64,000 nucleotides of DNA from the IMG/VR virus record IMGVR_UViG_3300024331_000152, positions 1-64,000 of that record. One strand, 5' to 3'. Every line of letters starts with the position of its first letter. Position 1 is the stretch's first letter. Below the pieces are notes generated by a model. It saw nothing but the letters and a program-made list of their open reading frames with translations. It ran no database searches and was not told the DNA's origin. The translations under genes and the position numbers were made by a program. Shown in pieces: positions 35,877-51,010 of this stretch. The stretch comes from a virus. Taxonomy: Duplodnaviria; Caudoviricetes.

Positions 35877-36602
35877 CTAGATCTTCTTGAAAGTCAGAGC
35901 CCATACCCACGGGTTTTCTTTGTGTGCGTGCACACCGTTGATGTCATCCCAAAGGTAAAAGTATGCCTGACGTCGCGGCGGCGCGAGATGGTTTTTTACG
36001 AGGTACGCATCGTCTATACCTTCGGCAAGAGCATCCTCTTCGCTGATGTCCTGCAAGCGCTCGACACGTACGTCTGTGATCTCCAGCAGTGTTCGCGAGC
36101 ACCAGCGGAACATGAAGCGCGCGTGCCGCCACTTGTCACCGTGCCGTCCATTGTCATGTGCGACGATCCACTTGTCGGCAGCTTCACGCGTGGGCTCGAT
36201 AGGCCGGAAAGAGTTGTCCGCTTTATATCGGACGCCGTCGATACCAGTCTTCGGATCTTCCCATGTGCGCCACGCCTCGCGGACCCAAAAACGGTCTCCG
36301 ACGATGCCGTGTGCTTTGGGACCATGTTTTTCGATGAATTGTTGGACACCCATACTATGGTAAGTCCCAACACTTTCACACTCTGTGATGACGTGCTTTA
36401 GAGGTCCCGGAGGAAGTTCGGTTGGAAACATGTCTGGGCAAATAAACAGGTCACCAATTTCTATTTTTGTAAATGACTGTGCGGGGCTAATAGTCCTGCA
36501 TGACCGAGGCTGAGGAGTAAGCACGCGCCGCGTTTGCCACTTCAGGCCGTCGCGAGACTTCTGAGCGTTCGCAGGTGTGAATAAGATACCGCGTTCTTTC
36601 AT
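35877..36602 (-). CDS. ASCH/PUA-like phage protein
   Basis: ILF.......GLKWQTRR, GDRFWVRE.W, MFRW.SR.LLEITDVRVERLQDISEEDA.AEG, NPWVW...F. Confidence 0.85.
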   Translation of the reverse strand: MKERGILFTPANAQKSRDGLKWQTRRVLTPQPRSCRTISPAQSFTKIEIGDLFICPDMFPTELPPGPLKHVITECESVGTYHSMGVQQFIEKHGPKAHGIVGDRFWVREAWRTWEDPKTGIDGVRYKADNSFRPIEPTREAADKWIVAHDNGRHGDKWRHARFMFRWCSRTLLEITDVRVERLQDISEEDALAEGIDDAYLVKNHLAPPRRQAYFYLWDDINGVHAHKENPWVWALTFKKI

Positions 36603-36940
36603 GGATTCACCTTCAGAAACTCCCGAAAGCTCCCGCCTGTTGCATCCGACCAGTCAAGGAATCGTTGATACCGCTGTTGGCTCTTCGTCAGCACAGGAGC
36701 CTTCGGCGACGCGCTGCGCATAGCCACAATACCGTTGCCTGTCACGCGATAACAGACGTCACCACCGGTCGCTGTATTTCCCGGAAACTTTTCCATAAAG
36801 CCCAACGTCACCAACTCATCAGCAACCGCACATTCACCGATGTAGTAGTCGCGGTAGTACCAGTCATGACCTTTCGGCCAGCGACCGTATTGATCCGACC
36901 CGAGAGCGTGTTGTAGGACTTCAAGCTGGCGCGGCGTCAT
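36599..36940 (-). CDS. Hypothetical phage protein
   Basis: Overlapping stop/start; LQHALG...YRDYY. Confidence 0.6.
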   Translation of the reverse strand: MTPRQLEVLQHALGSDQYGRWPKGHDWYYRDYYIGECAVADELVTLGFMEKFPGNTATGGDVCYRVTGNGIVAMRSASPKAPVLTKSQQRYQRFLDWSDATGGSFREFLKVNP

Positions 36941-37692
36941 TTGACCACCGGAAACTGATTTGCGATCAGATGTGCAGGGATCAGGTGTTTGCCTTCATCT
37001 GGGATGCGCGCCGACATCTGCTTCATAAAGAAGGCGACGCCATACTTTTCACACTCTTGTTTTATATCTTCTGCCCACTTCTGCTCCATTGGGCGAAAGC
37101 CAGCGCCGCTCTCACCACCGCAAATGATCCAGTCAGGAAGTCCTAACCCGCTATGACTGGCATCCATAGTTAATGGGCCGATAGCAGGCTCATAGCTTAT
37201 CCACGCAGGGAAGCCACGATCCTGACGGAGGACCGCGATTAAAGGCCAGCGGACGTCGTAGAATTCCTGATTCTCGCAAGTCGTTCCGATCCACACGTTG
37301 TCATGCACGAAATCATGCGGAAGGTAACGTTCGTACCGATGCGGTCTCTTCGTCAGGAGCTGCCAGATCAAGTACGGCGTGTGATCGATCAAAGACCAGA
37401 GCCGCTCGCGCGCACCTTCCGGCGCTTCGTCATCCATCACATCGCAGAGCGAGCCACAGAAGACTTTATGCTTCACGCCTGCCTTCTCAGCCTCACGGTT
37501 CCACTGAAGCGGCTTCTTCCAGTTTGAATCAGACGTCAGGCGGCGCGGCTTTCCTTTACCCCAGCTATCGTGTCCCCAGCGGTGGTCTTGTGATTCCGCA
37601 TAACAATGGTCACACCCGGGCGAGACCTTCGTGCAGCCAATCCAAGGATTCCAGCTACTGTCCGCCCATGCGATCTTAGTAACCTTTCCCAC
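36937..37692 (-). CDS. DUF5131 (phage Gp37/Gp68) radical-SAM-like protein
   Basis: IAWAD.SWNPW.GCTKVSPGCDHCYA, LLTKRP, WIS.EP, WII.GGESG, FFMKQ. Confidence 0.9.
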   Translation of the reverse strand: MGKVTKIAWADSSWNPWIGCTKVSPGCDHCYAESQDHRWGHDSWGKGKPRRLTSDSNWKKPLQWNREAEKAGVKHKVFCGSLCDVMDDEAPEGARERLWSLIDHTPYLIWQLLTKRPHRYERYLPHDFVHDNVWIGTTCENQEFYDVRWPLIAVLRQDRGFPAWISYEPAIGPLTMDASHSGLGLPDWIICGGESGAGFRPMEQKWAEDIKQECEKYGVAFFMKQMSARIPDEGKHLIPAHLIANQFPVVK

Positions 37693-38311
37693 GATGTACC
37701 TCCTTATGACACACATCGCAAAGCGTGATTCCATTAGCGAGCAAAAAGCGAACTAAAACGAAGGTCGCGAATGGAAGAATATGATGGGCGTGCAAGTTCC
37801 CTCCCGTTGCATCGCCACAGCGTTGGCAGGTAAATCGGTCCCGTGAGTAGACTTCGTACCGCCAGCGCTTATACTCGGCGCTGTAGCGTATACCCAGACG
37901 CTCAACGCCACGTCCATCAACATATCCATGGCATTGATTTCCACGCTTCGCTACAGCTCGAACAGACGCGCTTATTTTAGCTCGCTCTTGAAGGGTACGC
38001 GGCACACCGCGTTTTTCACTTACAAACCCCGGTTTCCGACCGCCATTAAAATTGGGTCCAAAATGTTTACCCTTCATCGGTGACGGTCGTCCTTTTGTAC
38101 ACTTGCGAACCTCGACACGTCGAACAGCTAGGCAGCGAGATGCCAGCCCGTCCGCGCGCCACGCATCGCGGCCAAAGTTTTCTACAGGTTCCATCTTTTT
38201 ACAATCAGAACACCAACGCAATCCAGACGCACAAAGACGCCGGTATTCGTCAATCGGAATACCGATTCGCTTCATGAACGTCTTCAACGCGCCGTCTCTC
38301 GTCTGTGCCAT
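37676..38311 (-). CDS. HNH endonuclease
   Basis: YKRWR..V..RDRFTCQRCG....LHAHHI.......NGITLC.VCH. Confidence 0.85.
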   Translation of the reverse strand: MAQTRDGALKTFMKRIGIPIDEYRRLCASGLRWCSDCKKMEPVENFGRDAWRADGLASRCLAVRRVEVRKCTKGRPSPMKGKHFGPNFNGGRKPGFVSEKRGVPRTLQERAKISASVRAVAKRGNQCHGYVDGRGVERLGIRYSAEYKRWRYEVYSRDRFTCQRCGDATGGNLHAHHILPFATFVLVRFLLANGITLCDVCHKEVHRGKGY

Positions 38312-38318
38312 TATTGCG

Positions 38319-38627
38319 TTATTTCTTCCTCGCTTCCAGCATCGCGTCGGCCATTTGATAATATCGTTCAGCCGCCTTATCGAAATATTTGATTTGGAGA
38401 GCACTGTCCCCGTAATCTTGAGCAGCCCAATCACCTGTCAGCGCCGCCATCGCGAACTGATCGCGGATAGATAGTTTGTCAGGAAACAGAGCTTCGATGA
38501 GCTGCCCGTCTGCAAGCTTTTCGGTCTGCTTGAGCTTCGCCTCAAGCTCTTGCCACTGTTCCTTGTCGTACCCGGGTGTGCCGACAGCCTTTGTCCAGAG
38601 CGTGTGGAGTAGTTGATGATTATTCAT
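38319..38627 (-). CDS. Hypothetical phage protein
   Basis: SIRDQFAMAAL...YQMADAMLEAR motif common in phage ORFs. Confidence 0.7.
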   Translation of the reverse strand: MNNHQLLHTLWTKAVGTPGYDKEQWQELEAKLKQTEKLADGQLIEALFPDKLSIRDQFAMAALTGDWAAQDYGDSALQIKYFDKAAERYYQMADAMLEARKK

Positions 38628-38643
38628 AGTCCCCCCCAGTGTT

Positions 38644-38850
38644 TCAGTATTTGTCATTCAGATCTCGAAGATAAAAAAGTTGCTTTGGACTCACGGAGCG
38701 CGCGTCGTCCATCTTGCCGATAAACTCCGCTTCTCTTTCGGTCATTTGGCTCACTGTGATGCGTTCCAGAAGTTGGCGCAGGATGCGATCCTTCTCTGCA
38801 ACGCGTTCATCTTCGGTCAGTGTTGATTGGCTTAGATCGTGGTATCCCAT
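38644..38850 (-). CDS. Hypothetical protein
   Basis: SD AGGAGG upstream. Confidence 0.6.
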   Translation of the reverse strand: MGYHDLSQSTLTEDERVAEKDRILRQLLERITVSQMTEREAEFIGKMDDARSVSPKQLFYLRDLNDKY

Positions 38851-38871
38851 ATGCCTCCTATTTCACCTGTT

Positions 38872-39060
38872 TCAGACTGGCTTTTCTGGCCAAGCATTTG
38901 CTTCATTCTTCGTGAGCGCAGTGGTTGCAACGACGACGACGTTCTTTAGTCCAAACTTGCCTATCCTGTCATCGAGAAGCTTATGAATAGCCTCGACTGG
39001 ACAGCCGGTCAGGTGCGCGTACTTGCGCTCGCATACAGGGCATTGTCTATCGAGCGGCAT
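38872..39060 (-). CDS. Small hypothetical protein (CxxC..H..C)
   Basis: ATG overlapping the end of the GT4 gene. Confidence 0.4.
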   Translation of the reverse strand: MPLDRQCPVCERKYAHLTGCPVEAIHKLLDDRIGKFGLKNVVVVATTALTKNEANAWPEKPV

Positions 39061-40276
39061 GGATACCGTCCTTAATCCACTTCTGCCAGCGCGGCCAGAG
39101 CTGTTTCCAATCGAGGTGATCAGGCAGCACAGTACGCGTCTTTGTCTTGATGATGTCATCTGCTGCTGCTGCCCAAATATGAGGATCGTAAACGGGCCGC
39201 TTGCACCCATACAGCCCTTCGTAACGATAGGTCTGCGTGCCGACAAAATGCCCACCACCGTTCTCTGGCGCGCCGCCATAGTTCGCGGCAACACAAGGCG
39301 TGCCGCAAGCGACCGATTCGAAGATCGGGAATCCGAAACCTTCACCTAACCCGATTCCAAACGTGAGGTCGCATGCGCTGTAGGCGATTGCCAAATTTAC
39401 TTCACTTAGCTCGCCGGAAAGCAGCGTGTCTTTGTCGAGACCGTAATCGATCAGTAGTGAAGGGATCGACCAATAGCGTTCCAACGCGTCGGTGTGTATC
39501 CAGAGTCTGATTTTGTGGCCGTTGCGCTTTAAGATCGATGCTGTCTCCAACGCTAATGCGTAGTCTTTCCGATGCTGGTTCGTTGCGACGATGCCGATCA
39601 GCACCTCATCCTGCGCGATACTCTTCTGCACGCCGTAGATCGAGGTTGAGCCCGTCTTAGCAAGGAACTGCTTGCGACAGAGAGATTGATTCGTCGGGAA
39701 GAAGACGCTCGTATCGATGCCATGCGGCAGGTAATCGAGATCCCTGACGTTGTTCTCCAGTGAATTAGCACAGATATTTTGTGCCCACGACGAGTAGGCG
39801 AGTAGGCGATCAAAACCTGCAAGAGACTTCCGCAGAGGGAACGTCAGTTTGTCGTTCGGACCTGTTGCATCGATTGGAAGGTAGGCCCAGCGTTTGAAGG
39901 GCTTTTGAAGAAGAAATTTCTGGAGCTGTGGAAACACAGCGAGCTGCGGGGCTCTGTCTGGGATCGCGAGCCACATCAGGCGCGACAGATCCCAGACAGA
40001 CATCAAGATTCCGTGTTCACCTTGCGCGAAATCGTCCCATACTACCGGCAATGATGGCAGTATAAATTCGGTTGAAACAGGCTCCTTCTCCATCGTGTAT
40101 TGCTCGAAGCCGAGATGACGAGAGTGTGGTGCGCCCCATCCATACGTGCCGACGCGGATAATGTCGGACATGTGCTCGTGAATCCCTTTGGCGATTTGTA
40201 GTGTGATTCGTGCAAGCCCGGTCGGCGCAGTGATTGCATCGGACACGAGCAACATGGGTACTGTTTTGACGGCCAT
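39047..40276 (-). CDS. Glycosyltransferase family 4 (GT-B)
   Basis: SDA...TGLAR, PHGIDT..F, NQHRK, GEGFGFPIFES.ACG.P. Confidence 0.9.
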   Translation of the reverse strand: MAVKTVPMLLVSDAITAPTGLARITLQIAKGIHEHMSDIIRVGTYGWGAPHSRHLGFEQYTMEKEPVSTEFILPSLPVVWDDFAQGEHGILMSVWDLSRLMWLAIPDRAPQLAVFPQLQKFLLQKPFKRWAYLPIDATGPNDKLTFPLRKSLAGFDRLLAYSSWAQNICANSLENNVRDLDYLPHGIDTSVFFPTNQSLCRKQFLAKTGSTSIYGVQKSIAQDEVLIGIVATNQHRKDYALALETASILKRNGHKIRLWIHTDALERYWSIPSLLIDYGLDKDTLLSGELSEVNLAIAYSACDLTFGIGLGEGFGFPIFESVACGTPCVAANYGGAPENGGGHFVGTQTYRYEGLYGCKRPVYDPHIWAAAADDIIKTKTRTVLPDHLDWKQLWPRWQKWIKDGIHAAR

Positions 40277-40315
40277 GTCGCCGAGAATATCAGGAAGCGC
40301 AGAGTTTGGCGAGTG

Positions 40316-40747
40316 TTATTCTTGGCACTCTTCCACAGTGATCAGAGCATGTGGCGTCTCGTGATAATCCTTCGAAACCTGTGCGCGTACCACCTGACAA
40401 TCATCTGTCCAGAGAATACCTTTCAATGCATCGAGACATGATCGCATCAGCTTGTCTTCATCGGGCTTGACAACGGGGTATAGCCGGTCCTTCGGAGCGA
40501 ACTTCGGTCGTGCAAAATAGAAGCGCAGAGTTATCGATACCGGAGCTTCTTTAGGAAAAGGAATCGTATTAAATCCAGCATCAACGCGCGCACGAAGCGC
40601 AGCCCATCCGACCTCTTGGCGGAATGGCATTGTGTTAGTGTTGTCGGATTTGACGAAGGCTTTGCCCGTACGATTCGAGATAATTGCGCGCATGCTCCCT
40701 TGCGGAGCTGGTGTGCCGAGCACGGTAAATGATATCCGTGGTCCCAT
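40316..40747 (-). CDS. rusA: Holliday junction resolvase RusA family
   Basis: F.V.G.PAPQGS, KPDEDKL.R..LDAL.GI.W.DDCQVV. Confidence 0.9.
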   Translation of the reverse strand: MGPRISFTVLGTPAPQGSMRAIISNRTGKAFVKSDNTNTMPFRQEVGWAALRARVDAGFNTIPFPKEAPVSITLRFYFARPKFAPKDRLYPVVKPDEDKLMRSCLDALKGILWTDDCQVVRAQVSKDYHETPHALITVEECQE

Positions 40748-40883
40748 TGTCCAGAATCTGGATTATTTCACAAGAGAGGCTCCGACATCCCTGCGCTCCG
40801 GCTTCCCCAACCCAAGCGGGAGCCCCTCTTGCATGAGCGACAATATCAAATTGCATTCGTGAAATCTATATCAAAAAACATGC

Positions 40884-40912
40884 TTGACACTCTGCCGGAA
40901 TCATGGAATGAT
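40884..40912 (+). promoter_or_regulatory. Sigma70-type promoter of tRNA array A
   Basis: TTGACA-17 nt-(TG)nAATGAT; predicted start site at the GTG/ATG (40920/40923) of the leader ORF. Confidence 0.7.
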
Positions 40913-40922
40913 TCATTCCGTG

Positions 40923-40994
40923 ATGAAGTTCTTAGCTCTCAGTTCGCTCTCTCTGTATTGCCTGTCATCGGCAGGCATGGGGGCGTCTATGTAA
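40923..40994 (+). CDS. Attenuator leader peptide A (MKFLALSSLSLYCLSSAGMGASM)
   Basis: 12 of codons 4-16 are Leu/Ser/Tyr/Cys, the amino acids of the downstream tRNAs. Confidence 0.85.
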   Translation: MKFLALSSLSLYCLSSAGMGASM

Positions 40995-41022
40995 GCGCGA
41001 GCTTCAGTAGACTTGGCAACTG

Positions 41023-41048
41023 CCCCCGGCTAACCGCTGGGGGTTTTT
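41023..41048 (+). terminator. Intrinsic terminator (attenuator A)
   Basis: CCCCCGGC-TAACC-GCTGGGGG-TTTTT; 5' arm can instead pair with GGGGGC at 40979-40984. Confidence 0.85.
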
Positions 41049-41052
41049 ATTT

Positions 41053-41129
41053 GCGCGCGTACGCCAACGGAAGAGCGAATCGCCTTAAAAGCGATTGGTT
41101 GATGGGTTCGAATCCCTCGGCGCGCACCA
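41053..41129 (+). tRNA. tRNA-Leu(TAA), short variable arm
   Basis: AATCGC-CTTAAAA-GCGATT, TTCGAAT, ACCA. Confidence 0.8.
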
Positions 41130-41131
41130 AT

Positions 41132-41207
41132 GTACCGGAAGGTAAAGGCTGGAACCAGCGGTCCGCAAAACCGCTTTTAGCGAGTTGAACTCTCGCCCGG
41201 TACTCCA
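41132..41207 (+). tRNA. tRNA-Cys(GCA)
   Basis: GCGGT-CCGCAAA-ACCGC, acceptor GTACCGG/CCGGTAC, U73-CCA. Confidence 0.75.
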
Positions 41208-41217
41208 ATTTTGAAGT

Positions 41218-41294
41218 GCTCCGGTAGCCCAAAGGCAGGAGGCGCACGGTTCAGGTTCGTGACAGTGTGGGTTCGAATCCCACCCGGAGTACCA
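41218..41294 (+). tRNA. tRNA-Leu(CAG)
   Basis: Cloverleaf, loop TTCAGGT, CCA. Confidence 0.85.
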
Positions 41295-41297
41295 AGT

Positions 41298-41376
41298 GCA
41301 CGAGTAGCCCAACTAGGTAGGAGGCACACGCTTGAGGGGCGTGGCAGTATGGGTTCGAATCCCATCTCGTGTACCA
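41298..41376 (+). tRNA. tRNA-Leu(GAG)
   Basis: CACGC-TTGAGGG-GCGTG, CCA. Confidence 0.9.
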
Positions 41377-41387
41377 AATTTAAATGT

Positions 41388-41466
41388 GCCTGCGTAGCCC
41401 AATTAGGTAGGAGGCGTCTGGCTTAGAACCAGAACAGTATGGGTTCGAATCCCTTCGCAGGTACCA
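41388..41466 (+). tRNA. tRNA-Leu(TAG)
   Basis: TCTGG-CTTAGAA-CCAGA, CCA. Confidence 0.9.
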
Positions 41467-41467
41467 T

Positions 41468-41546
41468 GCCCTCGTAGCCCAACTAGGCAGGAGGCACTTC
41501 ATTCAAAACGAAGTCAGTGTCGGTTCGAATCCGACCGAGGGCACCA
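41468..41546 (+). tRNA. tRNA-Leu(CAA)
   Basis: Loop TTCAAAA, acceptor GCCCTCG/CGAGGGC, CCA. Confidence 0.9.
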
Positions 41547-41555
41547 AGTTTTAAC

Positions 41556-41648
41556 GGAGCGTTGGCTGAGTCTGGTTTAAGGCACCTCACTGCTAACGAG
41601 GCGTGACTGTAAAAGGCACCGTGCGTTCGAATCGCACACGCTCCGCCA
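41556..41648 (+). tRNA. tRNA-Ser(GCT)
   Basis: Loop CTGCTAA, long variable arm, G73-CCA. Confidence 0.9.
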
Positions 41649-41655
41649 TTTGAAC

Positions 41656-41743
41656 GGATGAGTGAGCGGAATGGTATCGCCCTGCGTTGGAAGCGCAGCT
41701 CACGTGAAAGCGTGTGCAGGTTCGAGTCCTGTCTCATCCGCCA
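41656..41743 (+). tRNA. tRNA-Ser(GGA)
   Basis: CTGCG-TTGGAAG-CGCAG, long variable arm, GCCA. Confidence 0.9.
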
Positions 41744-41744
41744 T

Positions 41745-41832
41745 GGAAGCACTGGGCATGTGGAGAGCCCACCCGCCTCGAAAGCGGACGTACCGCAAGG
41801 TACTGAGTGTTCGACTCACTCTGCTTCCGCCA
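41745..41832 (+). tRNA. tRNA-Ser(CGA)
   Basis: Loop CTCGAAA, long variable arm, GCCA. Confidence 0.85.
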
Positions 41833-41836
41833 GTTT

Positions 41837-41924
41837 GGGTGTGTGGGCGAGCGCTTTAAGCCTCTGGCCTTGAAAGCCAGCGTACCGAAAGGTACCGTGG
41901 GTTGGAATCCCACCGCACCCGCCA
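41837..41924 (+). tRNA. tRNA-Ser(TGA)
   Basis: CTGGC-CTTGAAA-GCCAG, long variable arm, GCCA. Confidence 0.9.
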
Positions 41925-41930
41925 TGTTGT

Positions 41931-42019
41931 GCAGGCGTCGTGTCTACTGGAAGACCAAGCGGGCTGTAAACTCGCTGCTCCTTCGAGCTATGGGGGTTCG
42001 ATTCCCTCCGCCTGCACCA
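41931..42019 (+). tRNA. tRNA-Tyr(GTA)
   Basis: Loop CTGTAAA, variable arm, ACCA. Confidence 0.85.
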
Positions 42020-42020
42020 T

Positions 42021-42440
42021 TTACTTCACGTCTGAGTTGTACCAGCGGATCAGTTTCTTGAACAGGCTAAGCCTGAGAACGAGCAGGCAGTCGGCGCGTT
42101 GTTTCCATGGTCTCAGAACCACGGTGTAAGGCATCTTTCTGTAGACTGTTTTTCCGCCTTTTATTGAGCCGCAATGCCCAACAACTTCGACTGTCCACGT
42201 GCCTAGCCTAGCGCCCGAAGACTGTTTTGGATCTAGCGTGGATACGTCAAACGAATCGACGAACGTCACCGCTTTCCGAAAATCTTTGATCGGTATTGTG
42301 ATGTCGGCACGAGAGAGACCGGTAGACACCATAAATCCGATATTAGTTCCGCTGAACCATATTCTCGCCTCAAGCTCTGGCACTTCGAAGACGGCCACGT
42401 TTACATCCCAATTACCTTCATTTAAATCGCGAGGTTTCAT
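42021..42440 (-). CDS. Hypothetical protein (leaderless start)
   Basis: TATACT-6 nt-ATG on the minus strand. Confidence 0.55.
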   Translation of the reverse strand: MKPRDLNEGNWDVNVAVFEVPELEARIWFSGTNIGFMVSTGLSRADITIPIKDFRKAVTFVDSFDVSTLDPKQSSGARLGTWTVEVVGHCGSIKGGKTVYRKMPYTVVLRPWKQRADCLLVLRLSLFKKLIRWYNSDVK

Positions 42441-42467
42441 GACGAGAGTATATGCTAAACTGCGCGC

Positions 42468-42731
42468 ATGCCGATCCAGCGCAAGCATGCTGTGTTCTAC
42501 ATCCCTCACACCGGGCTCTACTATACCGGAGCTGGGGAGTTCCTCGACGGCAAAGGCGAAAAAATCAAGTGGGATCGTTCGATCACGGTCTACAATACTC
42601 ATGCCAGAGCCGAGCGAGCCAGAAATAGAATCCTGCAACATAATCCGTTACAGTACGCTCGCGGCGAACTGGTGGTGATCAACGTCGAGATCATCGAAAA
42701 AGAGGATGAGGTAGGAGATGGCTTTCGATAA
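42468..42731 (+). CDS. Hypothetical protein (leaderless start)
   Basis: TGcTAAACT-GCGCGC-ATG. Confidence 0.6.
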   Translation: MPIQRKHAVFYIPHTGLYYTGAGEFLDGKGEKIKWDRSITVYNTHARAERARNRILQHNPLQYARGELVVINVEIIEKEDEVGDGFR

Positions 42732-42933
42732 CGGCTGGCCGAAGCATGTAGTGAATGGCGTCAGATATTCTGTCCATAACGAAGGTGAGTTCAACGGCAC
42801 GACGACGTGGATGGTAAAGCGCTACAACAACCCGAACGATGACGGCAATTACGTTGAGTGTCTGTTCTCTAGCGTCACGAAGGATGAGCTGATAGCGATC
42901 CAGCAGGCGATCAATACCGGATCGTGGGGATGA
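42718..42933 (+). CDS. Hypothetical protein
   Basis: SD GAGGTAGGAG. Confidence 0.55.
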   Translation: MAFDNGWPKHVVNGVRYSVHNEGEFNGTTTWMVKRYNNPNDDGNYVECLFSSVTKDELIAIQQAINTGSWG

Positions 42934-43139
42934 CCGCAGAAGAACTGCGGGACTTTAGAACCCGCGCACTTGTGATGCAGGAGCAGCAATATCTCGCGCT
43001 GGCATTTGAGGCGGCAAAGGCGGGGCATTTGCGGCTTTGCGATGAACTCTATCGCTGGGCTGCTGACCGTCATCAGAATCTACAACTTTATCTCGGATTG
43101 GTTCCCGACCAAACAGAAGCGCCTGCGCATCGGCAATAG
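42930..43139 (+). CDS. Hypothetical protein
   Basis: ATGA overlap with previous gene; also overlaps the AAA 3' end on the opposite strand. Confidence 0.4.
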   Translation: MTAEELRDFRTRALVMQEQQYLALAFEAAKAGHLRLCDELYRWAADRHQNLQLYLGLVPDQTEAPAHRQ

Positions 43140-44310
43140 TCGCCTTTTCGGGAAGCTGGCTGCGAAAATCGTCGTAATTCGAAATAGAGAAAACTTCTTT
43201 TGCTCGCTGGTGAAACCGGCGCAACTCTTCCTCGCGCGCCCAAGTAATATGAAACTCGCGGTCGATTCTTCCCTTGCGCACAAGAGCTGAATCGAGTCTC
43301 TCGCGATGATTCGTAGTGATAATCAGCAATCGTCCCTCGGTTGCAACTACGCCGTCGATCACATTCAGCAGATCCGAAGCGACGATTCCTTTGGTTACCT
43401 CGTCGCCGTCTTTGTCGAATTTGCGCTCCCGGGCGGCAGGCACGCAGTCCACATCCTCGATGAGCAGGATCGACCGATTACAAACGGTATTGATGAGCCT
43501 CTGTAGATCTTCAGAACGTTCAACGCCAGCGACGTTGAGGTAATAAAGTGGAAGCTCTAAATGCGTGGCAAGCGCTTGCACTAAGGATGATTTTCCTGTT
43601 CCCGGAGGACCATAGAAGCAGAAGCCGCGCCGCCATGGGATACCGAGCATTCGGTACTTGTCTTTGATCGACAAAAATTGCTCAATGTCGGTGACAATGG
43701 ATTCTATTTCACCGGCAGGCAGATAGATCGTATCGAGAGAGCGCGGCGACAACTCGCGGCTATCCCACCAGCTCCCTTCGTTGCGGTAGATGAAGAGTTT
43801 CTTTTCGAGTTGGGCATAGAACTCGGCCCGGGCCTCGTCAAGTAAATCAGTGATGATTTGGCGATCCAGCGTTCCCCAGATCGACACTTGGATCGTGCGG
43901 CGCGGACGGAATAGAGACGTCGCACCTTCAGCTATCGCCCCCGGCGTTCCCGGGGCAGAGGCTTCCTTATCGGATGTAAAAATTAGGAGATACCGCTGCT
44001 TGAAGCGCAGATAATAGGTTCCGTAGCGCGGGATCGTTTGATAGTCCATGCCGTCGATGGTGCGCTTGCGCCGGAGCATGAGATCTGTGATGCGCTTCTC
44101 GCGAATACGCTTTTCGGCCCATAGAGCAATCCACATGTAGGCTTCTTCGGTCTCATGCTCTTCGACCGCAACGGCGACATGCAGCTTTCGGAGGAAGTAG
44201 CCAATCGAATAGTTGTAGACGAGAGACCAGAAGTTTCGGAGCCAGCCCAGAGCTACTCCGCCCACCACGAGCAGCCATGGCGAGTCTTTCATCAGTTTTT
44301 GCCAATCCAT
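42955..44310 (-). CDS. BCS1-like membrane AAA+ ATPase
   Basis: N-terminal TM, R.LDTIYL, Y..LGIPWRRG..FYGPPGTGKSS, LLIEDVD, LLNVIDG, TTNH.E.LD.ALVR.GRID. Confidence 0.9.
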   Translation of the reverse strand: MDWQKLMKDSPWLLVVGGVALGWLRNFWSLVYNYSIGYFLRKLHVAVAVEEHETEEAYMWIALWAEKRIREKRITDLMLRRKRTIDGMDYQTIPRYGTYYLRFKQRYLLIFTSDKEASAPGTPGAIAEGATSLFRPRRTIQVSIWGTLDRQIITDLLDEARAEFYAQLEKKLFIYRNEGSWWDSRELSPRSLDTIYLPAGEIESIVTDIEQFLSIKDKYRMLGIPWRRGFCFYGPPGTGKSSLVQALATHLELPLYYLNVAGVERSEDLQRLINTVCNRSILLIEDVDCVPAARERKFDKDGDEVTKGIVASDLLNVIDGVVATEGRLLIITTNHRERLDSALVRKGRIDREFHITWAREEELRRFHQRAKEVFSISNYDDFRSQLPEKATIADAQALLFGREPIRDKVVDSDDGQQPSDRVHRKAANAPPLPPQMPARDIAAPASQVRGF

Positions 44311-44420
44311 TCCGAAATAATAGCGCAGATTTTCCAGAATCTGGAAACGATGCTAAAGTGGTGAGCATTCCGTGGTTCCGGCAACACGTTAAGCAACCGG
44401 AAAATCTGAAAGGTAATCTG

Positions 44421-44858
44421 ATGAATACAAAAGCTACGGCTGGTGTAGATATTTCCGCGTCATCTCCCTCTACAACATTCAGCACGAATGGCCCGGTATC
44501 GAGTTCGGCATCGTCTTTCGATGTTGCTGAAGACTTTCCAATGATCCCACTGCTTGCAAGACCAGAATATGTGCCAGTAGTAACGCACATCGTGAATGCA
44601 AATGTGATACCTAATCTGCGCGTCCTTCTCGCATCAGCGCTGGGTGCTATCGATGCAGCAATCCCAAACAAGGACCAAAATCGTGCGGTGCGGCATATTG
44701 TTCGTACTCAATTCGACGCCGCCTATGCTGATATCTTGCAACGCGCATACCCGACGTGCCAGTTCGGATGGGAAAGCTGTTATGCGGTCGAGCCGGAATT
44801 ATCTCGGTCGAAAGCTTTCAGCGGTCTGACAGTGAGTGCCGGGTCTCCTTCAAAATAA
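44421..44858 (+). CDS. Hypothetical protein
   Basis: ATG after AAGGT; upstream TGcTAAAGT -10 box. Confidence 0.55.
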   Translation: MNTKATAGVDISASSPSTTFSTNGPVSSSASSFDVAEDFPMIPLLARPEYVPVVTHIVNANVIPNLRVLLASALGAIDAAIPNKDQNRAVRHIVRTQFDAAYADILQRAYPTCQFGWESCYAVEPELSRSKAFSGLTVSAGSPSK

Positions 44859-44895
44859 TTTGCGAGCTTAGTGAAACCTGTGGTATTTTAGAGTT

Positions 44896-44970
44896 CGCGG
44901 TCGAGTGGATGGGTCCCACGATGCCCTCATAAGGCATAGATTGCAGGTTCGAACCCTGTGACCGCAACCA
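44896..44970 (+). tRNA. tRNA-fMet-like (CAT)
   Basis: C1:A72 mismatch, ATGCC-CTCATAA-GGCAT, ACCA. Confidence 0.75.
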
Positions 44971-44980
44971 ATTGACTGGA

Positions 44981-45208
44981 ATCCTCGGGGCAGCGTTGAA
45001 GCGTTACTAGTACGTGGAGCTTGGTAGAGATTCGCCTTGCAGTATCGTCCCCGATAGGGCAAGGATGTGAGGCCGTCACAACTGGAGAGAGAACCGCCGA
45101 TCTCTGACAACGGCTCAGCGGTGACGCTCAGGAGAGACTGAGGATCTTCAAGGAGGACCCGGCATGACGCTTGATTACCGAGATTGCGAATCGCGAGAGT
45201 CGGTCCTC
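44981..45208 (+). ncRNA. Candidate structured ncRNA between tRNAs
   Basis: ATCCTCGG/CTGAGGAT closing helix, CCTTGC/GCAAGG, TGTGA/TCACA, AGCG-GTGA-CGCT, GAGGACC/GGTCCTC; no ORF. Confidence 0.5.
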
Positions 45209-45216
45209 GAATCTTT

Positions 45217-45291
45217 GGCTGTGTAGCTCAACCAGAGCACCCGTCTTCAAAACGGTAGGTTGCAGGTATACAACCCCTGTCACAGCCACCA
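45217..45291 (+). tRNA. tRNA-like with UCA (opal) anticodon, atypical D/T loops
   Basis: CCGT-CTTCAAA-ACGG, acceptor GGCTGTG/CACAGCC, ACCA; T-loop TATACAACC non-canonical. Confidence 0.6.
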
Positions 45292-45314
45292 ATTCTCTCG
45301 ACAAAATTTCAAAC

Positions 45315-45390
45315 GGGGTAGTAGCATAGCGGCTAATGCACTTGATTGTCGATCAAGCCATCGCGGGTTCGAGTCCCGTCTGCCCCGCCA
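45315..45390 (+). tRNA. tRNA-Asp(GTC)
   Basis: CTTGA-TTGTCGA-TCAAG, GCCA. Confidence 0.9.
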
Positions 45391-45408
45391 TAATTTTCAG
45401 GAGATTCT

Positions 45409-45621
45409 GTGAGCAAGTGGAGCCCAGTAGGTGAAAACGAAACCGGCTTCACTGAAGGTGGAGACCACGGAGAATTCAACTGTGGAAACTGTGTTCACAT
45501 GAAGGATGGCTGCACGCATCCGATCATGAAGGCGATCTCGCAGCGGCCTCGCAAAAAGAACGGAAACGTTGAGGTAGACGAAGATGACTGCTGCACGTTC
45601 GTACGCAGACCGGGAGACTAG
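45409..45621 (+). CDS. Small Cys-rich (Fe-S/HiPIP-like) protein
   Basis: SD AGGAG, C..C.H....C...CC. Confidence 0.5.
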   Translation: MSKWSPVGENETGFTEGGDHGEFNCGNCVHMKDGCTHPIMKAISQRPRKKNGNVEVDEDDCCTFVRRPGD

Positions 45622-46140
45622 ATGATCTGTCCTGATTGCGACAAAGCGGAGATGGTCGAGACTGAAGTGACGCGCGACTTTAAAGTCGGTCGCAAGGAAC
45701 CTGTCACGTTGTCGGCTACGGCGGTAGTTGAGATCTGCCCAGCGTGTAAGTGTGAACTGCACGGCTGGCAGATGGAGAGAGCGAAGTCGCTCGCGATGTC
45801 TAAATGGATGAAGGAAAACCACAGGGTTGACATTAACCCGCCAGAAGATTTGCGGATCGCTCACGCGGCGTCATCGTTTCACCTCAAACAGCTTGAGCAT
45901 GAAGGTAAGGCAGCATGTTTCTATTGCCTACGTTTCTTCAACATCGAGGAGATTGAGGACTGGATCGACAATGAGCAGACGGCGCTCTGTCCGAAGTGTG
46001 GTATTGACTCCGTGATTCCAGAGACGGACAATGTAACACCAGAGTTCCTAAAGCGCATGCAGCAATATTGGTTTGATGCAGGCGCAGACCTTGCAAAGAA
46101 AGATTGTCAGGAGCCTGCTCCTGCAATGCCGGGAACGTAA
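45622..46140 (+). CDS. Double zinc-ribbon protein
   Basis: MqsA-like CPDC..CPAC N-terminus fused to CFYCL..F...EI..WID...TALCPKCGIDSVI domain. Confidence 0.7.
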   Translation: MICPDCDKAEMVETEVTRDFKVGRKEPVTLSATAVVEICPACKCELHGWQMERAKSLAMSKWMKENHRVDINPPEDLRIAHAASSFHLKQLEHEGKAACFYCLRFFNIEEIEDWIDNEQTALCPKCGIDSVIPETDNVTPEFLKRMQQYWFDAGADLAKKDCQEPAPAMPGT

Positions 46141-46199
46141 TGATGGATAGCGTTCAGGACTGACCTTGCCATCCAACTAACCTTTGGAGATAAAACCCA

Positions 46200-46365
46200 A
46201 TGGAAGTCAAACGGAAAGAAATTGAAACGCTGATCGAAAAGTCAGCTAAAAGCACACGATTCTGGAGACGCTATGCGTTTTTCTCAGGCGGCATGTAATT
46301 GTGCAAATGCCATACGCTGCTTGCTCGACGCAGAACTCGAACAAGCTTGTTCCGGCCCGAAGTAG
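46200..46365 (+). pseudogene. Small phage gene with apparent frameshift at GCTAAAAGC
   Basis: MEVKRKEIETLIEKSAK continues as AHDSGDAMRFSQAACNCANA.. only if one A is skipped. Confidence 0.5.
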
Positions 46366-46368
46366 ACC

Positions 46369-46708
46369 GGTGGTTGCACCCCGCCTCGCCGCGAGGCTAA
46401 GTCGCGGCAGAGATTTAAGCATGTAGAAGGCAACTAATCAGATTTCGGACGTGGGTTCGAATCCCACCGAGTCCACCAATCAGCTAACGCGCCGGGGCGA
46501 AACGCCTTGGTTCAACGAAAGTTCAGCTAAGAGTTAAAGCTGGTCCGTTGGCTGATTTGTGGGCTCGCCAAGGTTTCGACGGGATCAGAAGACGTTGTGC
46601 AGTTCATGCCGAGTGCTGTGGCCTGCGTTAAGGGACACGGAAAAAACAAATGCAGATGCTTCGGCACTGCCGATGGCAGCCTAAAAACTGACGTCTGAGG
46701 GTGGCCGC
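46369..46708 (+). ncRNA. ssrA: Circularly permuted (two-piece) tmRNA
   Basis: T-arm plus CGAGTCC-ACCA ends 46478; hairpin-closed spacer; GGGCTCG..TTCGAC starts 46561 (G3:U70); tag ORF 46652-46684 ADASALPMAA-stop. Confidence 0.9.
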
Positions 46709-46745
46709 AATACTCATCAAAGAACCATGCGGCACAAATACGCTA

Positions 46746-47150
46746 ATGCCTTACAAAGACAAAATTAAGCGTGCAGAGTATTGGAGGAATTATGTAATTG
46801 CCAACCCTCACGTCAAAACCAGAACTAAGACCGACAGGAAGCGCGAGAACGGCGAGGGCTGGGAGATTAAGAACCGCATCCCCTTCAAGATCTCGTGCTG
46901 CGATTGTGGTCTCGTCCATAATCTGGTTATCGTAGCTCCGAATACGAGAAAGGGCGCAGTCCTTGGCATCGCTGCGGAACGAAACGAGCGCGCAACCGGA
47001 CAGAAGCGCAGACATTTAGTGACGAACAAGCCAGAGACGCCTGAGGAGGCGGCGCGCAGACTAGGCGTGTCGAAGAAACGTCTCGAATCAATTCGCGAAA
47101 TTATGTCGCGCCCTGTGTTACGCTCAAAGCGAAAACACTTGAATCCCTAA
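46746..47150 (+). CDS. Hypothetical protein (CCDCGLVH motif)
   Basis: MPYKD start, ISCCDCGLVH. Confidence 0.6.
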   Translation: MPYKDKIKRAEYWRNYVIANPHVKTRTKTDRKRENGEGWEIKNRIPFKISCCDCGLVHNLVIVAPNTRKGAVLGIAAERNERATGQKRRHLVTNKPETPEEAARRLGVSKKRLESIREIMSRPVLRSKRKHLNP

Positions 47151-47187
47151 GGCGTTCAGACCGCGAATCTGAGCGTCTCTTTTTTTC

Positions 47188-47216
47188 TTGACAACAGGCG
47201 CAGAGTTTCGTACCTT
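47188..47216 (+). promoter_or_regulatory. Sigma70 promoter, leaderless transcript
   Basis: TTGACA-17 nt-TACCTT, 6 nt before ATG at 47223. Confidence 0.75.
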
Positions 47217-47222
47217 CTGTTC

Positions 47223-47711
47223 ATGCATTGAATCGCCAACACGCATTCATACGTTTTCGTCCGGTACGATCTCTCCCTCGCACAATCTGTAATCCAGTCG
47301 AGCCATGCTACCCATTCGATGGCTAATGGGCTCTCCCAGAGCCCTGAAGTTCCGCATATCGTTCTGATCGGCGTTCCAGACGTCAAGGCCCTTGAACGGG
47401 TCATTCAAAAACTCCGCGACAATCACATTGAATTTGCTGCCTTCGATGAGCCTGACGATAATCTCGGCTTGACGGCGGTCGCTACTGTTCCTCTCAACGA
47501 AGAGCAGAGACTTGTGTTCCAGAACTACAAGATCTGGACTGAAGAAGAATACTTTTACACGCGCGTAGCTCAGTGGTCAGAGCACTCCGGGAGGTTGACG
47601 GAGAGGTCGGCTGTTCGAATCGGTCCGCGCGTACCATGGGCGGTTCATTCGGTGATGTATCCGGTTCGAATCCGGTATCGCCCACCATGCGCGGTTAGCT
47701 CGACTATGTAG
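47223..47711 (+). CDS. Pth2-like peptidyl-tRNA hydrolase with in-frame UGA at codon 3
   Basis: ATG CAT TGA, then in frame YVFVRYDLSLAQSVIQSSHA...IVLIGV....L.......F.EPD...GLTAVA. Confidence 0.75.
47559..47636 (+). tRNA. tRNA-like element with 9-nt anticodon loop (GGAGGTTGA)
   Basis: Canonical D and T arms, ACGCGCG/CGCGCGT-ACCA; no readable anticodon. Confidence 0.7.
47638..47687 (+). ncRNA. Mini tRNA-like element (acceptor plus T arm only)
   Basis: GGGCGGT/ATCGCCC-ACCA, CCGG-TTCGAAT-CCGG. Confidence 0.65.
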
Positions 47712-47737
47712 AGGGGAAGATCCTCGCCCGCGCTCCA
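47689..47737 (+). ncRNA. Mini tRNA-like element
   Basis: GCGCGG/CCGCGC-TCCA, GAGG-GGAAGAT-CCTC. Confidence 0.5.
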
Positions 47738-47743
47738 ATTCGA

Positions 47744-47819
47744 GCGCTCGTGGCTCAGCGGCAGAGCGCCGGTCTTCAAAACCGGGTCAGCGTGGGTTCG
47801 AACCTCACCGAGCGCTCCA
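47744..47819 (+). tRNA. Opal suppressor tRNA (UCA), Gly-like acceptor identity
   Basis: CCGGT-CTTCAAA-ACCGG, canonical cloverleaf, G1:C72 C2:G71 G3:C70 U73. Confidence 0.85.
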
Positions 47820-47926
47820 CTGAAATTTGAGGTAATATATTTCTGCGCGCCGAGCGCGAGACCTGATCAGATCCGTCTCAACGGGCTGGCACGATGTCCA
47901 GCGCATCTAGCAAAAGGAGAATCAAG

Positions 47927-48277
47927 ATGCGTACTCGTTGCAAGTTCCGTGTTGTTGGAATTGAAGATGTTGATCACCAGATCCAGAAAAGGATCTACAA
48001 AGATCAGGTAAGCGCTGAGGAATATGCGGCAATCGAGAGTTCGGAATGGCCAGACCGTAATGGATTTGGGGATATCAGAATGTACAAACTCGTTGGCCTC
48101 GGCCATGCCCAGAACATCCGGCTCGCCGCTCAGTATGATCCATCAATCCCCGAAGATCAGCGCTTTATGGAAGCAACGCCGACTGGAGAGTTGAAGTTTT
48201 ACGTCAGCAACCCAGCAGTGATCGGCGGCTTTCAGATCGGCAAAAATTACTACATTGATCTGATACCATGTGGCTAG
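47927..48277 (+). CDS. Hypothetical phage protein
   Basis: SD AAGGAG; RCKF.V ... E...F..ATP.G.L...V.NP.....F..GK.YYID. Confidence 0.75.
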   Translation: MRTRCKFRVVGIEDVDHQIQKRIYKDQVSAEEYAAIESSEWPDRNGFGDIRMYKLVGLGHAQNIRLAAQYDPSIPEDQRFMEATPTGELKFYVSNPAVIGGFQIGKNYYIDLIPCG

Positions 48278-48305
48278 CAGACCAGTGCCCGACCCTACAC
48301 AGGTC

Positions 48306-48338
48306 AAAAGGCCCATCCAGTTTCTGGACGGGCCTTTT
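48306..48338. terminator. Bidirectional terminator
   Basis: AAAAGGCCC-ATCCAG-TTT-CTGGAC-GGGCCTTTT between convergent genes. Confidence 0.7.
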
Positions 48339-48690
48339 ACTTTACTCGTATCTTCGCTAGCGGTCCGGACGCAATACTCGTGTTCATTTGTCCAGCGATC
48401 ATCTGCTTGGTCTGCACGATGTAGCAGGCCGAGGAATTCTTCGGAATCGCATCAACGTATGCCAGTAGCGTGGTAGGAGATTGCGCGTTGAGCGGGGCGT
48501 AGTTTTTTGCGCTCGTAGCCGGACAGGTTGTTCCTGAGATCATCACACGGCTTACGATGTAGCTGCAAGCTGGCCACCCCGTACCGCAAGTGACAGGCAG
48601 TTGCCATGAGATCGTAACCTTGACGTTGGGCGGCGCGGCTGACGCGTACGTAAAGACGAAAACACCGATGAGAATGATCTTTCGCAGCAT
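48337..48690 (-). CDS. Secreted Fn3-like protein, paralog of 1372-1881
   Basis: Signal peptide; CSYIVSR, GTT.CP, NY.PLN...PT..L.Y.D, CY.VQT.Q shared. Confidence 0.75.
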   Translation of the reverse strand: MLRKIILIGVFVFTYASAAPPNVKVTISWQLPVTCGTGWPACSYIVSRVMISGTTCPATSAKNYAPLNAQSPTTLLAYVDAIPKNSSACYIVQTKQMIAGQMNTSIASGPLAKIRVK

Positions 48691-48843
48691 CGGGAACCCT
48701 CAGAAAATCGTCCAGATTCTGGACCGTGAGCGCAGTATAATACGAAAAGCCAACGGGGCGTCTCTCTAAAGTGGAGACGAATAGTATCAGGTCTTGCCGT
48801 CCGTGACCTGTTTCAAGGCAAATCAAATTGAGACAGGTGAAAA

Positions 48844-49320
48844 ATGGCAGGATACGTGTACCTTATCGGTACGCCAACGTTTCGTTGGTATAAAATCGGC
48901 AAATCCCGCGTTCCTGAGATCAGGATTCAAGATCTCGGAATTCTTCTCCCTTTTAAAATTGAAATTGTTGGTATCTGGAAAGCGCACGACCATACCGCTC
49001 TTGAGTCTCTACTACACGAGCGATACGCCGAAAGAAGAATAAACGGTGAGTGGTTTCACTTCTATCGCGCTGAGGTTATGGGGATATTCGCGTCCCTTCC
49101 TGAAGAAGCGAGGATATTTCCGTCTGGAAATTCCGATTCGTTTTTCGCTAAATTTTCGAACATCGAGCGAGATTGCCCGGAAGGCAAGAGACTTCATTTG
49201 TCTACTAGGAGGGTGCGTGGAAACTTTACAGATGAGCAGAGAGCCTACTTGCGACAAAAAGCGATAGAGGAGCATAAAAAGAAAAAAGCGCTACGGGATG
49301 CAAATAAGAGTATGCTTTAA
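48844..49320 (+). CDS. T5orf172/GIY-YIG domain protein
   Basis: GYVYLI.....YKIG.S..PE.R...L, LE..LH..Y...R.NGEWF. Confidence 0.85.
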   Translation: MAGYVYLIGTPTFRWYKIGKSRVPEIRIQDLGILLPFKIEIVGIWKAHDHTALESLLHERYAERRINGEWFHFYRAEVMGIFASLPEEARIFPSGNSDSFFAKFSNIERDCPEGKRLHLSTRRVRGNFTDEQRAYLRQKAIEEHKKKKALRDANKSML

Positions 49321-49402
49321 GCGTCGGGAAACCGACTATCCAGCAGGCTTGCAACGCGATTGTATGGGGCTTTAGTCTGCGGCCCGTTTCAAGGAGAACC
49401 AA

Positions 49403-50266
49403 ATGATGTATATCAAGCATTTCGTCCTCGCCGTGCGCGTCAACGGTAAAATCCTCAAAGAACATGACCAAGTTGTCCACCTCCCTTTCGGAGCTGAGTA
49501 TGAGCTGTTGCTCAAGAACCTCAACTCGCGCCGCGCGATGGTCGGTGTCTCCATTGACGGCAAGCGTACCAGTGATTGTCGTTTCGTAATTCCAGCTAAC
49601 TCGGAGAGCGTTCTTGAGCGCTACGTCAAAAACGGCAACATGGACTCCGGGAACCGCTTCAAGTTCATCGAACGCACCTCGGCAGTTGAAGAACATCGCG
49701 GAGTGGGATCGGACGACGGTATCGTGCGCGCCGAGTTTTGGGCAGAGCGAGAAGTTGTCACGCTTCCTCGCACAATCATCAATGATTCATGGCTTCCTTC
49801 ATCTCCGTATGATCGCAGGCGTCGCACGCTTGGAAATTCTGGAGGCTTTAGAAGTTTCAGCGGCATCACAGGACAAAGTGTTCCATCTGATGATGTGTCG
49901 TGCATGTACGGTAGTGTTCAAGGTGGAGCTGAGGCCCCGGGATCGAGCTTTAACGTAGGCTCGCTCAATGCGCAGGTGACATACACGTCATCGTTGGGCG
50001 CGGACATGTCGAAGATCGCAGATAACGACGCGGGCATCACCGTCCCGGGCAGCGAGTCGTCGCAGCGCTTCCACTGGACAAACGGCTTCGAGCTGGAGAG
50101 CACAAGCACCGTAATCATACTTCAGCTTCGTGGCGAGATCGGCGGACAGGCTGTTGCTGCGCCGGTCACGGTGGAGTATAAGCCTGTCTGCATCACCTGT
50201 GGCAAGACCAACAAGGGTACCAGCCGTTTCTGTGACCAGTGCGGAACGGCATTGCAAATTCTTTAA
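49403..50266 (+). CDS. Conserved phage protein with C-terminal double zinc ribbon
   Basis: SD AAGGAG; LPFG.EY.LLLKNL..RRA...SIDG; C..CG.......FC.QCG. Confidence 0.75.
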   Translation: MMYIKHFVLAVRVNGKILKEHDQVVHLPFGAEYELLLKNLNSRRAMVGVSIDGKRTSDCRFVIPANSESVLERYVKNGNMDSGNRFKFIERTSAVEEHRGVGSDDGIVRAEFWAEREVVTLPRTIINDSWLPSSPYDRRRRTLGNSGGFRSFSGITGQSVPSDDVSCMYGSVQGGAEAPGSSFNVGSLNAQVTYTSSLGADMSKIADNDAGITVPGSESSQRFHWTNGFELESTSTVIILQLRGEIGGQAVAAPVTVEYKPVCITCGKTNKGTSRFCDQCGTALQIL

Positions 50267-50274
50267 ATAACCTC

Positions 50275-50304: not shown

Positions 50305-50314
50305 AGGAAGCGTT

Positions 50315-51003: not shown

Positions 51004-51010
51004 AATTAGT

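Follow-up and report, generated by a model that had tools for sequence, protein, structure and literature searches.

The tRNA genes of a virus of the Caudoviricetes (Duplodnaviria) appear to be governed by a translated leader. We have analyzed the first 64 kb (hereafter the window) of the 142,794-bp virus record IMGVR_UViG_3300024331_000152, where a predicted promoter, a very short open reading frame (ORF) and a predicted intrinsic terminator, together called here cassette A, stand directly ahead of a plus strand array of eleven tRNA genes at 41053-42019 (array A). Our analysis of the sequence and of modelled RNA folds suggests, with a probability that we put at about three in four, that cassette A is a ribosome-mediated leader-peptide transcription attenuator gating a phage tRNA operon. 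Its most likely function would be the demand-driven, self-limiting transcription of the tRNA array. Translation of the ORF, functioning of the terminator, the kinetics of the process and the physiological signal are what we infer. An attenuator at this place had already been proposed in a preliminary description of the locus made from the letters alone, and all the in silico tests that we have run backed that interpretation. Two further cassettes of the same design, B and C, precede other tRNA blocks of the window.

The promoter of cassette A (40884-40912, plus strand) has a -35 hexamer TTGACA at 40884-40889, a spacer of 17 nucleotides (nt) with an extended -10 TG at 40904-40905, and a -10 hexamer AATGAT at 40907-40912. 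In a consensus scan of positions 40000-58000 it was the top sigma-70-like site (10/12 matches), and the terminator of cassette A was the top terminator-like site of the same interval. The predicted start of transcription falls at about 40919-40920. The leader ORF (40923-40994, plus strand; 23 codons plus stop, peptide MKFLALSSLSLYCLSSAGMGASM) begins with an ATG at 40923, 10 nt past the -10 hexamer, so that the short ORF is directly promoter-proximal, and ends with a TAA stop codon at 40992-40994. An in-frame GTG at 40920 would form the 5'-terminal codon if the mRNA is leaderless. This near-leaderless start is predicted from promoter geometry: in all ten A-type leaders (this one and nine from relatives, see below) the -35 hexamer TTGACA is invariant and the start codon lies 30-34 nt beyond it. 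The terminator (41022-41052, plus strand) is predicted to consist of a 9-bp GC-rich stem with a 5-nt loop (41022-41044) followed by TTTTTATTT, with a hairpin energy of -17.8 kcal/mol. What the preliminary description had said of the sequence in this region holds, with small corrections of the coordinates. The terminator ends 1 nt ahead of the tRNA-Leu(TAA) gene, which starts at 41053. Upstream, at 36599-40747, the clear genes, among them a RusA gene supported by Pfam, are all on the minus strand, and the terminator therefore ends no other plus strand gene. The U-tract and tRNA-Leu(TAA) are only 0-4 nt apart, which is too little for a separate promoter of the array. With this layout, the tRNAs of array A could only be made by transcription passing the terminator.

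The codon content of the leader corresponds to the array behind it. Array A consists, in this order, of Leu(TAA), Cys(GCA), Leu(CAG), Leu(GAG), Leu(TAG), Leu(CAA), Ser(GCT), Ser(GGA), Ser(CGA), Ser(TGA) and Tyr(GTA); there is no enzyme gene downstream of the leader, only tRNA genes, and no protein gene follows on that strand. Re-reading the leader with the ATG at 40923 as codon 1, we recovered for codons 4-16 (40932-40970, the control block) the series that had been reported, TTA GCT CTC AGT TCG CTC TCT CTG TAT TGC CTG TCA TCG, in which 12 of the 13 codons specify Leu, Ser, Tyr or Cys. As also claimed earlier, a strict cognate reading samples the four Ser classes, three of the five Leu classes (TTA, CTC, CTG), Tyr and Cys; when U:G wobble is allowed, ten of the eleven array tRNAs are sampled. 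Codons read by the tRNAs of array A make up 13 of the 22 sense codons, versus a background of 20.7% in the codon usage of 193 long ORFs of the genome (binomial P = 1e-4), and only 0.13% of the stop-free 22-codon windows in the six frames of the whole genome equal this value. Counting the leader codons one base out of frame gave no enrichment.

The composition of the array as first described, five Leu, one Cys, four Ser and one Tyr, could be kept, with ten genes called by ARAGORN and Rfam and the Cys gene assigned by homology to relatives. The corresponding stretch, 41132-41208, was not called by ARAGORN, nor by Rfam even at E<=1, and it aligns over its full length with the tRNA-Cys(GCA) genes that were called at the equivalent position of seven relatives. 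A C stands at position 33 of this tRNA-Cys(GCA)-like gene, whose D arm and T loop are unusual; the copy in the relative L001 has C33 as well. The five tRNA-Leu genes of the window (41053-41546) are only 77-79 nt long and lack the long variable arm of bacterial tRNA-Leu; those of L001 are 83-85 nt.

The same arrangement is found twice more in the window. Cassette B (50275-50467, plus strand) has a -35 hexamer TTGCAA at 50275, an ORF at 50315-50401 (MKLNRANSNHSFNPAAQPQGTTRVRGSA) and a predicted terminator at 50435-50467, and precedes an HNH-like ORF and an array with the order Asn-Gln-Gln-Gly-Thr...Thr-His-Ala-Pro-Pro-Arg (50929-53154). Cassette C (54469-54637, plus strand) has a -35 hexamer TTGCAA at 54469, an ORF at 54509-54577 (MQRTIAMSITKGTKRVIWGGVS) and a predicted terminator at 54602-54625 followed by a T-run, and precedes the array Trp-Met-Ile-Lys-Lys-Arg-Arg-Val-Thr-Ile-Gly (54647-56596). 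The ATG stands exactly 10 nt past the -10 hexamer in the three cassettes. In leader B, 18 of 27 codons are read by its own array (background 31%; binomial P = 1.3e-4; genome-window frequency 6e-4), with 11/11 tRNAs sampled; in leader C, 15 of 21 codons are (background 25%; binomial P = 9e-6; genome-window frequency 2.3e-4), with 11/12 tRNAs sampled. Each of the leaders A, B and C matches its own array and none matches the other two. Because the sister cassettes match their own arrays too, the test against chance becomes much stronger than with leader A by itself. The promoters of B (50275-50292) and C (54469-54486) share an identical 18-nt segment, TTGCAATTTGCGCGCATC, which is absent from the rest of the 143-kb genome; in the relatives, TTGACA stands at this place.

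We reached relatives of this virus through homologues of a 139-amino-acid protein encoded beside tRNA-Tyr, of which there are 12 with 46-61% identity. Their contigs, together with a further region of the virus record G001, contain the same tRNA blocks in the same order. Nine more distinct A-type leaders were found upstream of tRNA-Leu(TAA), giving a total of ten; the relatives share ancestry and are not independent, a point that weighs against our reading in that counts out of ten overstate the evidence. The A-type leaders of the relatives are ORFs of 18-27 codons (18-26 sense codons) and are followed by a GC-rich hairpin with a U-tract and directly by the tRNA; one of them (L022) begins with GTG. 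B-type leaders were found in eight relatives (nine in total) and a C-type leader in G001 (two in total). Pooled by type, the codons of the leader's own class amount to 134/226 in A, 154/221 in B and 33/44 in C, and in 21 of 21 leaders their number is highest in frame 0, which makes a cause acting at the nucleotide level alone unlikely. The C-type leader of G001 contains a CGG and its array a normal tRNA-Arg(CCG); leader C of the window has no CGG. The C-type leader of G001 (L019:11480-11700) also begins with a 5' untranslated region (UTR), about 50 nt long, in which GGAAGGA precedes the ATG by 7 nt, so that leaderless initiation is not essential to the design. Searching by other routes gave nothing more: megablast of 20 kb against deposited phage genomes found no close relative, distant blastn against the same genomes gave scattered tRNA similarity only, an exact scan of viral contigs for the promoter motif common to B and C gave no match, and a search with the neighbouring AAA ATPase as the single protein returned no loci.

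The comparison of the A-type leaders bears on what is being conserved. Their peptides are recognisably related, with a central Ser/Leu-Tyr-Cys motif, and the Leu and Ser codons around it are reshuffled, so that what is kept among them is the codon set and not the codon order. The codon TTA, which makes up 5% of the Leu codons of the genome, occurs exactly once in each of the ten, at codon positions that go from 4 to 14. In five of the ten, the five Leu codons span all five isoacceptor classes (P = 0.007 each under the codon usage of the window genome). Altogether 104 of the 110 leader-by-isoacceptor cells are filled, and the leader of L020 contains all 11 classes with only 12 codons. The ORF might instead encode a functional micropeptide, placed ahead of the tRNAs incidentally: the A-type peptides are homologous, keep their central motif, are hydrophobic, look membrane-active and share with small membrane peptides a high content of Leu and Ser. 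We consider this very unlikely, since hydrophilic and unrelated peptides are encoded in the B- and C-type cassettes, which nevertheless have the same design and the same match to their own arrays, and since it is the codon set rather than the residue order that is conserved. Moreover, the synonymous choice is constrained (one TTA per leader, all the Leu classes covered), and pairing with the terminator arm constrains the sequence in which the ORF ends.

That pairing is part of a set of alternative RNA folds. In the minimum free energy (MFE) fold obtained without constraints, region 1 (CGCTCTC, 40945-40951) pairs with 40979-40985, an 8-bp hairpin with loop ATC forms at 40959-40977, inside the ORF and just past the Tyr-Cys codons, and the terminator hairpin is formed. 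The fold of 40920-41055 is unusually stable (z = -4.0). The picture of region 1:2 pairing plus terminator was reproduced in 10 of the 12 leaders folded in this way, the exceptions being the A leader of L003, with a long-range fold, and the B leader of L011, without 1:2 pairing. The hairpin inside the ORF is a candidate RNA polymerase pause hairpin, judging from the modelled folds, and in the folds of relatives a hairpin of other sequence appears at the matching position. Region 2 (GGGGGC-GTCTA, 40979-40989), located within the last five sense codons, would be the 5' strand of the antiterminator. Its partner, region 3 (41008-41030), is made of TAGAC at 41008-41012 and GCCCCCGGC at 41022-41030, and the latter doubles as the 5' arm of the terminator. 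The pairing of region 2 with TAGAC and with GCCCCC (41022-41027), put forward in the preliminary description, was obtained with ViennaRNA when a ribosome was placed on codons 10-12.

The folding with and without a ribosome that had been suggested there was carried out for each A-type leader and gave an antiterminator profile that depends on where the ribosome stalls. The ribosome was represented by making positions A-15 to A+12 unpairable, the transcript was cut ahead of the 3' arm of the terminator (the arms were set manually for each leader), and the antiterminator gain was taken as the free energy gained when the 5' arm of the terminator may pair with upstream sequence. In leader A, stalls at codons 5-15 gave a gain between -9 and -15 kcal/mol; it was -2 to -6 kcal/mol from codon 16 to the stop, and -4.6 kcal/mol without a ribosome. 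Sequestering of region 2 in the untranslated leader was weaker in the relatives L003 and L011. Averaged over the ten A-type leaders, the gain was -9.0 kcal/mol at Leu, Ser, Tyr or Cys codons, versus -3.7 over the final four codons and -4.7 when no ribosome was placed, and the same ordering (control block larger than last codons and than no ribosome) was found in 10/10. When the span from the start codon to the terminator arm was shuffled with its dinucleotides preserved, 0 of 120 shuffles of the window leader and 1 of 270 of the nine relatives equalled the observed value for the block together with the two contrasts. The stems of the terminators vary from genome to genome (GCCCCCGGC, GAGCCCTCAG, AGCCGCCC, GAGCCTCCA, AGCCTCTGAA, CCCTCAGA, ACCGCCTCC, CCTCGGC) and region 2 varies along with them. 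MAFFT aligned the ten leaders too roughly for covariation to be counted column by column, and co-variation of the helix was judged instead from duplex energies: cognate 2:3 duplexes had a mean of -17.6 kcal/mol versus -13.0 for non-cognate ones, the cognate duplex being the best in 5 of 10 rows.

These folds also bear on the possibility of a reversed logic, in which efficient translation of the leader suppresses the terminator, stalling leads to termination and the tRNAs are made when translation is healthy. Suppression of a terminator by ribosomes close to it is a known effect (PMC4824070). However, in all ten A-type leaders the stop codon precedes the 5' arm of the terminator by 23-28 nt, which would be out of the reach of a terminating ribosome, and the computed antiterminator forms with the ribosome held in the control block and not at the end of the ORF. 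We therefore give this reversed arrangement very little credit.

Several observations weigh against the attenuator. At equilibrium, the MFE structure of leader A keeps the terminator for every stall position, and because the terminator wins at equilibrium the attenuator model must be kinetic (co-transcriptional), as for trp. The hairpin of the B-type cassette of L011 has no U-tract. As had been pointed out before, CTA and TTG are missing from leader A, though the tRNAs for both are in the array. In G001, where neither a Leu(GAG) nor a Leu(CAG) gene was called, the A leader has CTC and CTG; leader B of the window keeps a TTT, and array B of the window has no tRNA-Phe gene. We looked for a decayed tRNA-Phe in the gap at 52666-52863 and found no gene or remnant; tRNA-Phe(GAA) is present in array B of L001, G001, L021 and L023. 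With a single-ribosome mask, the antiterminator of leader B was favoured only for stalls at codons 2-11; queued ribosomes might, as a conjecture, cover region 1 for the later stalls. Finally, in some relatives Leu-Ser-Leu-Ser codons overlap a palindromic hairpin (CTCAG-T-CTGAG), so that two constraints bear on the same bases, and structure may account for part of the codon content of the leaders that have it.

The first two of these observations would suit another explanation, that the hairpin terminates constitutively but leakily, or else acts in RNA processing or stability, and in this way sets the level of tRNA transcription, the ORF being untranslated or irrelevant to the decision. It would leave unexplained the codon match, specific to one frame in 21 of 21 leaders, the conserved length of the ORF, its fixed distance to the promoter, the three leaders that match their own arrays, and an antiterminator profile that depends on stalling and exceeds that of the shuffles. 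We regard it as improbable. In the L011 B-type cassette itself (L011:255-450, minus strand), the same 8-mer, GGGGCCTC, serves once as region 2 and again as the hairpin's 3' arm.

The attenuator that we propose could work in the following way. Transcription would start at about 40919-40920 and a ribosome would load on the 5'-proximal GUG or AUG. If the control block is decoded fast, the ribosome would reach region 2 and the stop codon, masking or unwinding region 2; the hairpin at 41022-41044 would then form and RNA polymerase would halt at the U-tract before tRNA-Leu(TAA). With any one of the sampled aminoacyl-tRNAs in short supply, the ribosome would stall in the block and cover region 1, leaving region 2 to pair with region 3 (41008-41012 and 41022-41030), so that no terminator would form and the eleven tRNA genes would be transcribed. 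Without a ribosome, regions 1 and 2 would pair and the terminator would form. As the products of the operon are the molecules sensed, the circuit would be self-limiting. Cassettes B and C would do likewise for the other tRNA blocks, and in that case the three leaders would share out most of the codon table.

The same machinery could respond to the supply of amino acids, that is, to the charging of tRNAs when the host is starved of Leu, Ser, Tyr or Cys. What a ribosome senses is aminoacyl-tRNA, so that a low tRNA level and low charging are indistinguishable to it, and it is established that the classical trp, his, leu, thr and ilv leaders act in this manner. Besides, the leaders sample the codons of an amino acid even without a matching tRNA in the array. 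We considered whether the leader codons strictly follow the tRNA genes present in each genome and rejected this idea; the codons of the array amino acids are essentially all sampled whatever isoacceptor genes are present. However, runs of a single codon would suffice for this purpose, and the leaders carry about one codon per isoacceptor, always including the rare TTA. A panel with one codon per isoacceptor is the form expected of a sensor of tRNA species; a sensor of amino acids needs only single-codon runs. Extra tRNA would also give no relief from amino acid starvation, so that the output would be unfit for the input. An amino acid signal seems to us unlikely for these reasons, although less so than the other alternatives considered here. 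The natural trigger might be demand from rare codons, host shut-off or cleavage by anticodon nucleases.

It is conceivable, although we hold it to be doubtful, that the three (or more) leader cassettes make up together a surveillance system of the phage for the host tRNA pool, each leader being a test strip with one codon for each isoacceptor. If so, the loss of a single tRNA, be it by an anticodon nuclease, by host shut-off or at a host-rare codon, would turn on the replacement block within seconds, and the phage would have a counter-defence sensor that works without a protein regulator and goes off again once the pool is restored. To our knowledge, almost nothing is known about the regulation of phage tRNA genes. 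If the attenuator is real, phage tRNA expression would be demand-driven and the leader would show which decoding events matter to the phage. The oldest known RNA-based control would also be extended to targets in which the product is the molecule sensed, and synthetic biology would gain a compact, protein-free sensor of codon-specific decoding speed. The role of phage tRNA genes has long been debated; it has been proposed that they compensate for codon usage, make up for a host pool that has been degraded, or allow the phage to evade anticodon nucleases (for example PMC10264068).

Other features of these regions deserve mention. An ORF with an HNH-like Cys/His motif and no Pfam match lies at 50475-50999, between the terminator of cassette B and tRNA-Asn, and a similar one is found at the same place in G001 (L019, about 5450-5900). 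If the attenuator works, this HNH-like ORF would be under the same control as the tRNAs of array B. The window contains 36 tRNA genes called by ARAGORN and a permuted transfer-messenger RNA (tmRNA), a circularly permuted two-piece molecule at 46419-46684 (Rfam RF04321, 78 bits) with the tag peptide ADASALPMAA; relatives have a tmRNA at the same place with different tags. Near array A of L003, ARAGORN detected on the minus strand a tRNA with a CUA anticodon, labelled Pyl (10434-10507), and another with a four-base anticodon, gcaa (11322-11398).

Among known systems, the mechanism class proposed here is a textbook one. All the features that define a leader-peptide attenuator seem to be present in the sequence and the modelled folds, except for the kind of genes regulated. 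The use of such a device on tRNA genes, with an isoacceptor panel, is new to the literature that we searched: no account of leader-peptide attenuation of tRNA genes was found in full text, a search that covered few subscription journals. T-box riboswitches also sense the status of tRNA directly and choose between terminator and antiterminator, but they bind uncharged tRNA without a ribosome by means of a specifier loop, a T-box motif and stem I. Rfam gave no T-box or leader family at the gathering score across the window, and at E<=1 the interval 40850-41230 gave weak terminator-like matches only; with no Rfam T-box match, an identity as T-box was rejected.

The leuL and hisL leaders of E. coli and Salmonella resemble the phage leaders in that read-through reports the speed of codon decoding, with rare synonymous codons sharpening the response; they differ in sensing one amino acid through tandem codon repeats, with no isoacceptor panel and no tRNA genes downstream. 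The hisL leader has been used as a reporter of decoding speed (PMC4046918). Mycobacterial leaderless short ORFs with polycysteine form the so-called Cys ribulon (bioRxiv 10.1101/834739). There a sensory short ORF begins at or next to the 5' end of the transcript (5'-AUG or GUG), stalling on the sensed codons remodels the RNA downstream, and several independent units respond to the same kind of signal; a similar arrangement is predicted for the phage. In contrast, the stalling there frees a sequestered ribosome-binding site and acts on translation, whereas the predicted target in the phage is a terminator ahead of non-coding genes, and the codons come in runs of one kind there and as a panel in the phage.

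The thr leader contains Thr and Ile codons, and the ilvGMEDA and ilvBN leaders Ile, Leu and Val codons. Like the phage cassettes, they have a promoter-proximal ORF of about 20-30 codons, enriched in regulatory codons of more than one kind, with an intrinsic terminator behind it, and mutually exclusive 1:2, 2:3 and 3:4 helices among which a stalled ribosome selects the antiterminator. However, they regulate biosynthetic enzymes, whereas the phage cassette would regulate tRNA genes, its output being the molecule sensed. Their control codons come in runs and not, as in the phage, as a panel of about one per isoacceptor for four amino acids. The phage mRNA is also predicted to be leaderless or nearly so, and the phage has three parallel copies. 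The pheM leader controls pheST, the phenylalanyl-tRNA synthetase genes, through the cognate tRNA, and thus places a component of the translation apparatus under leader-peptide attenuation, although with a synthetase as product, a single amino acid and a host chromosomal gene. The nearest systems in logic would be the multivalent thr and ilv leaders and the pheM of pheST, and the nearest for the leaderless start would be the mycobacterial polycysteine short ORFs.

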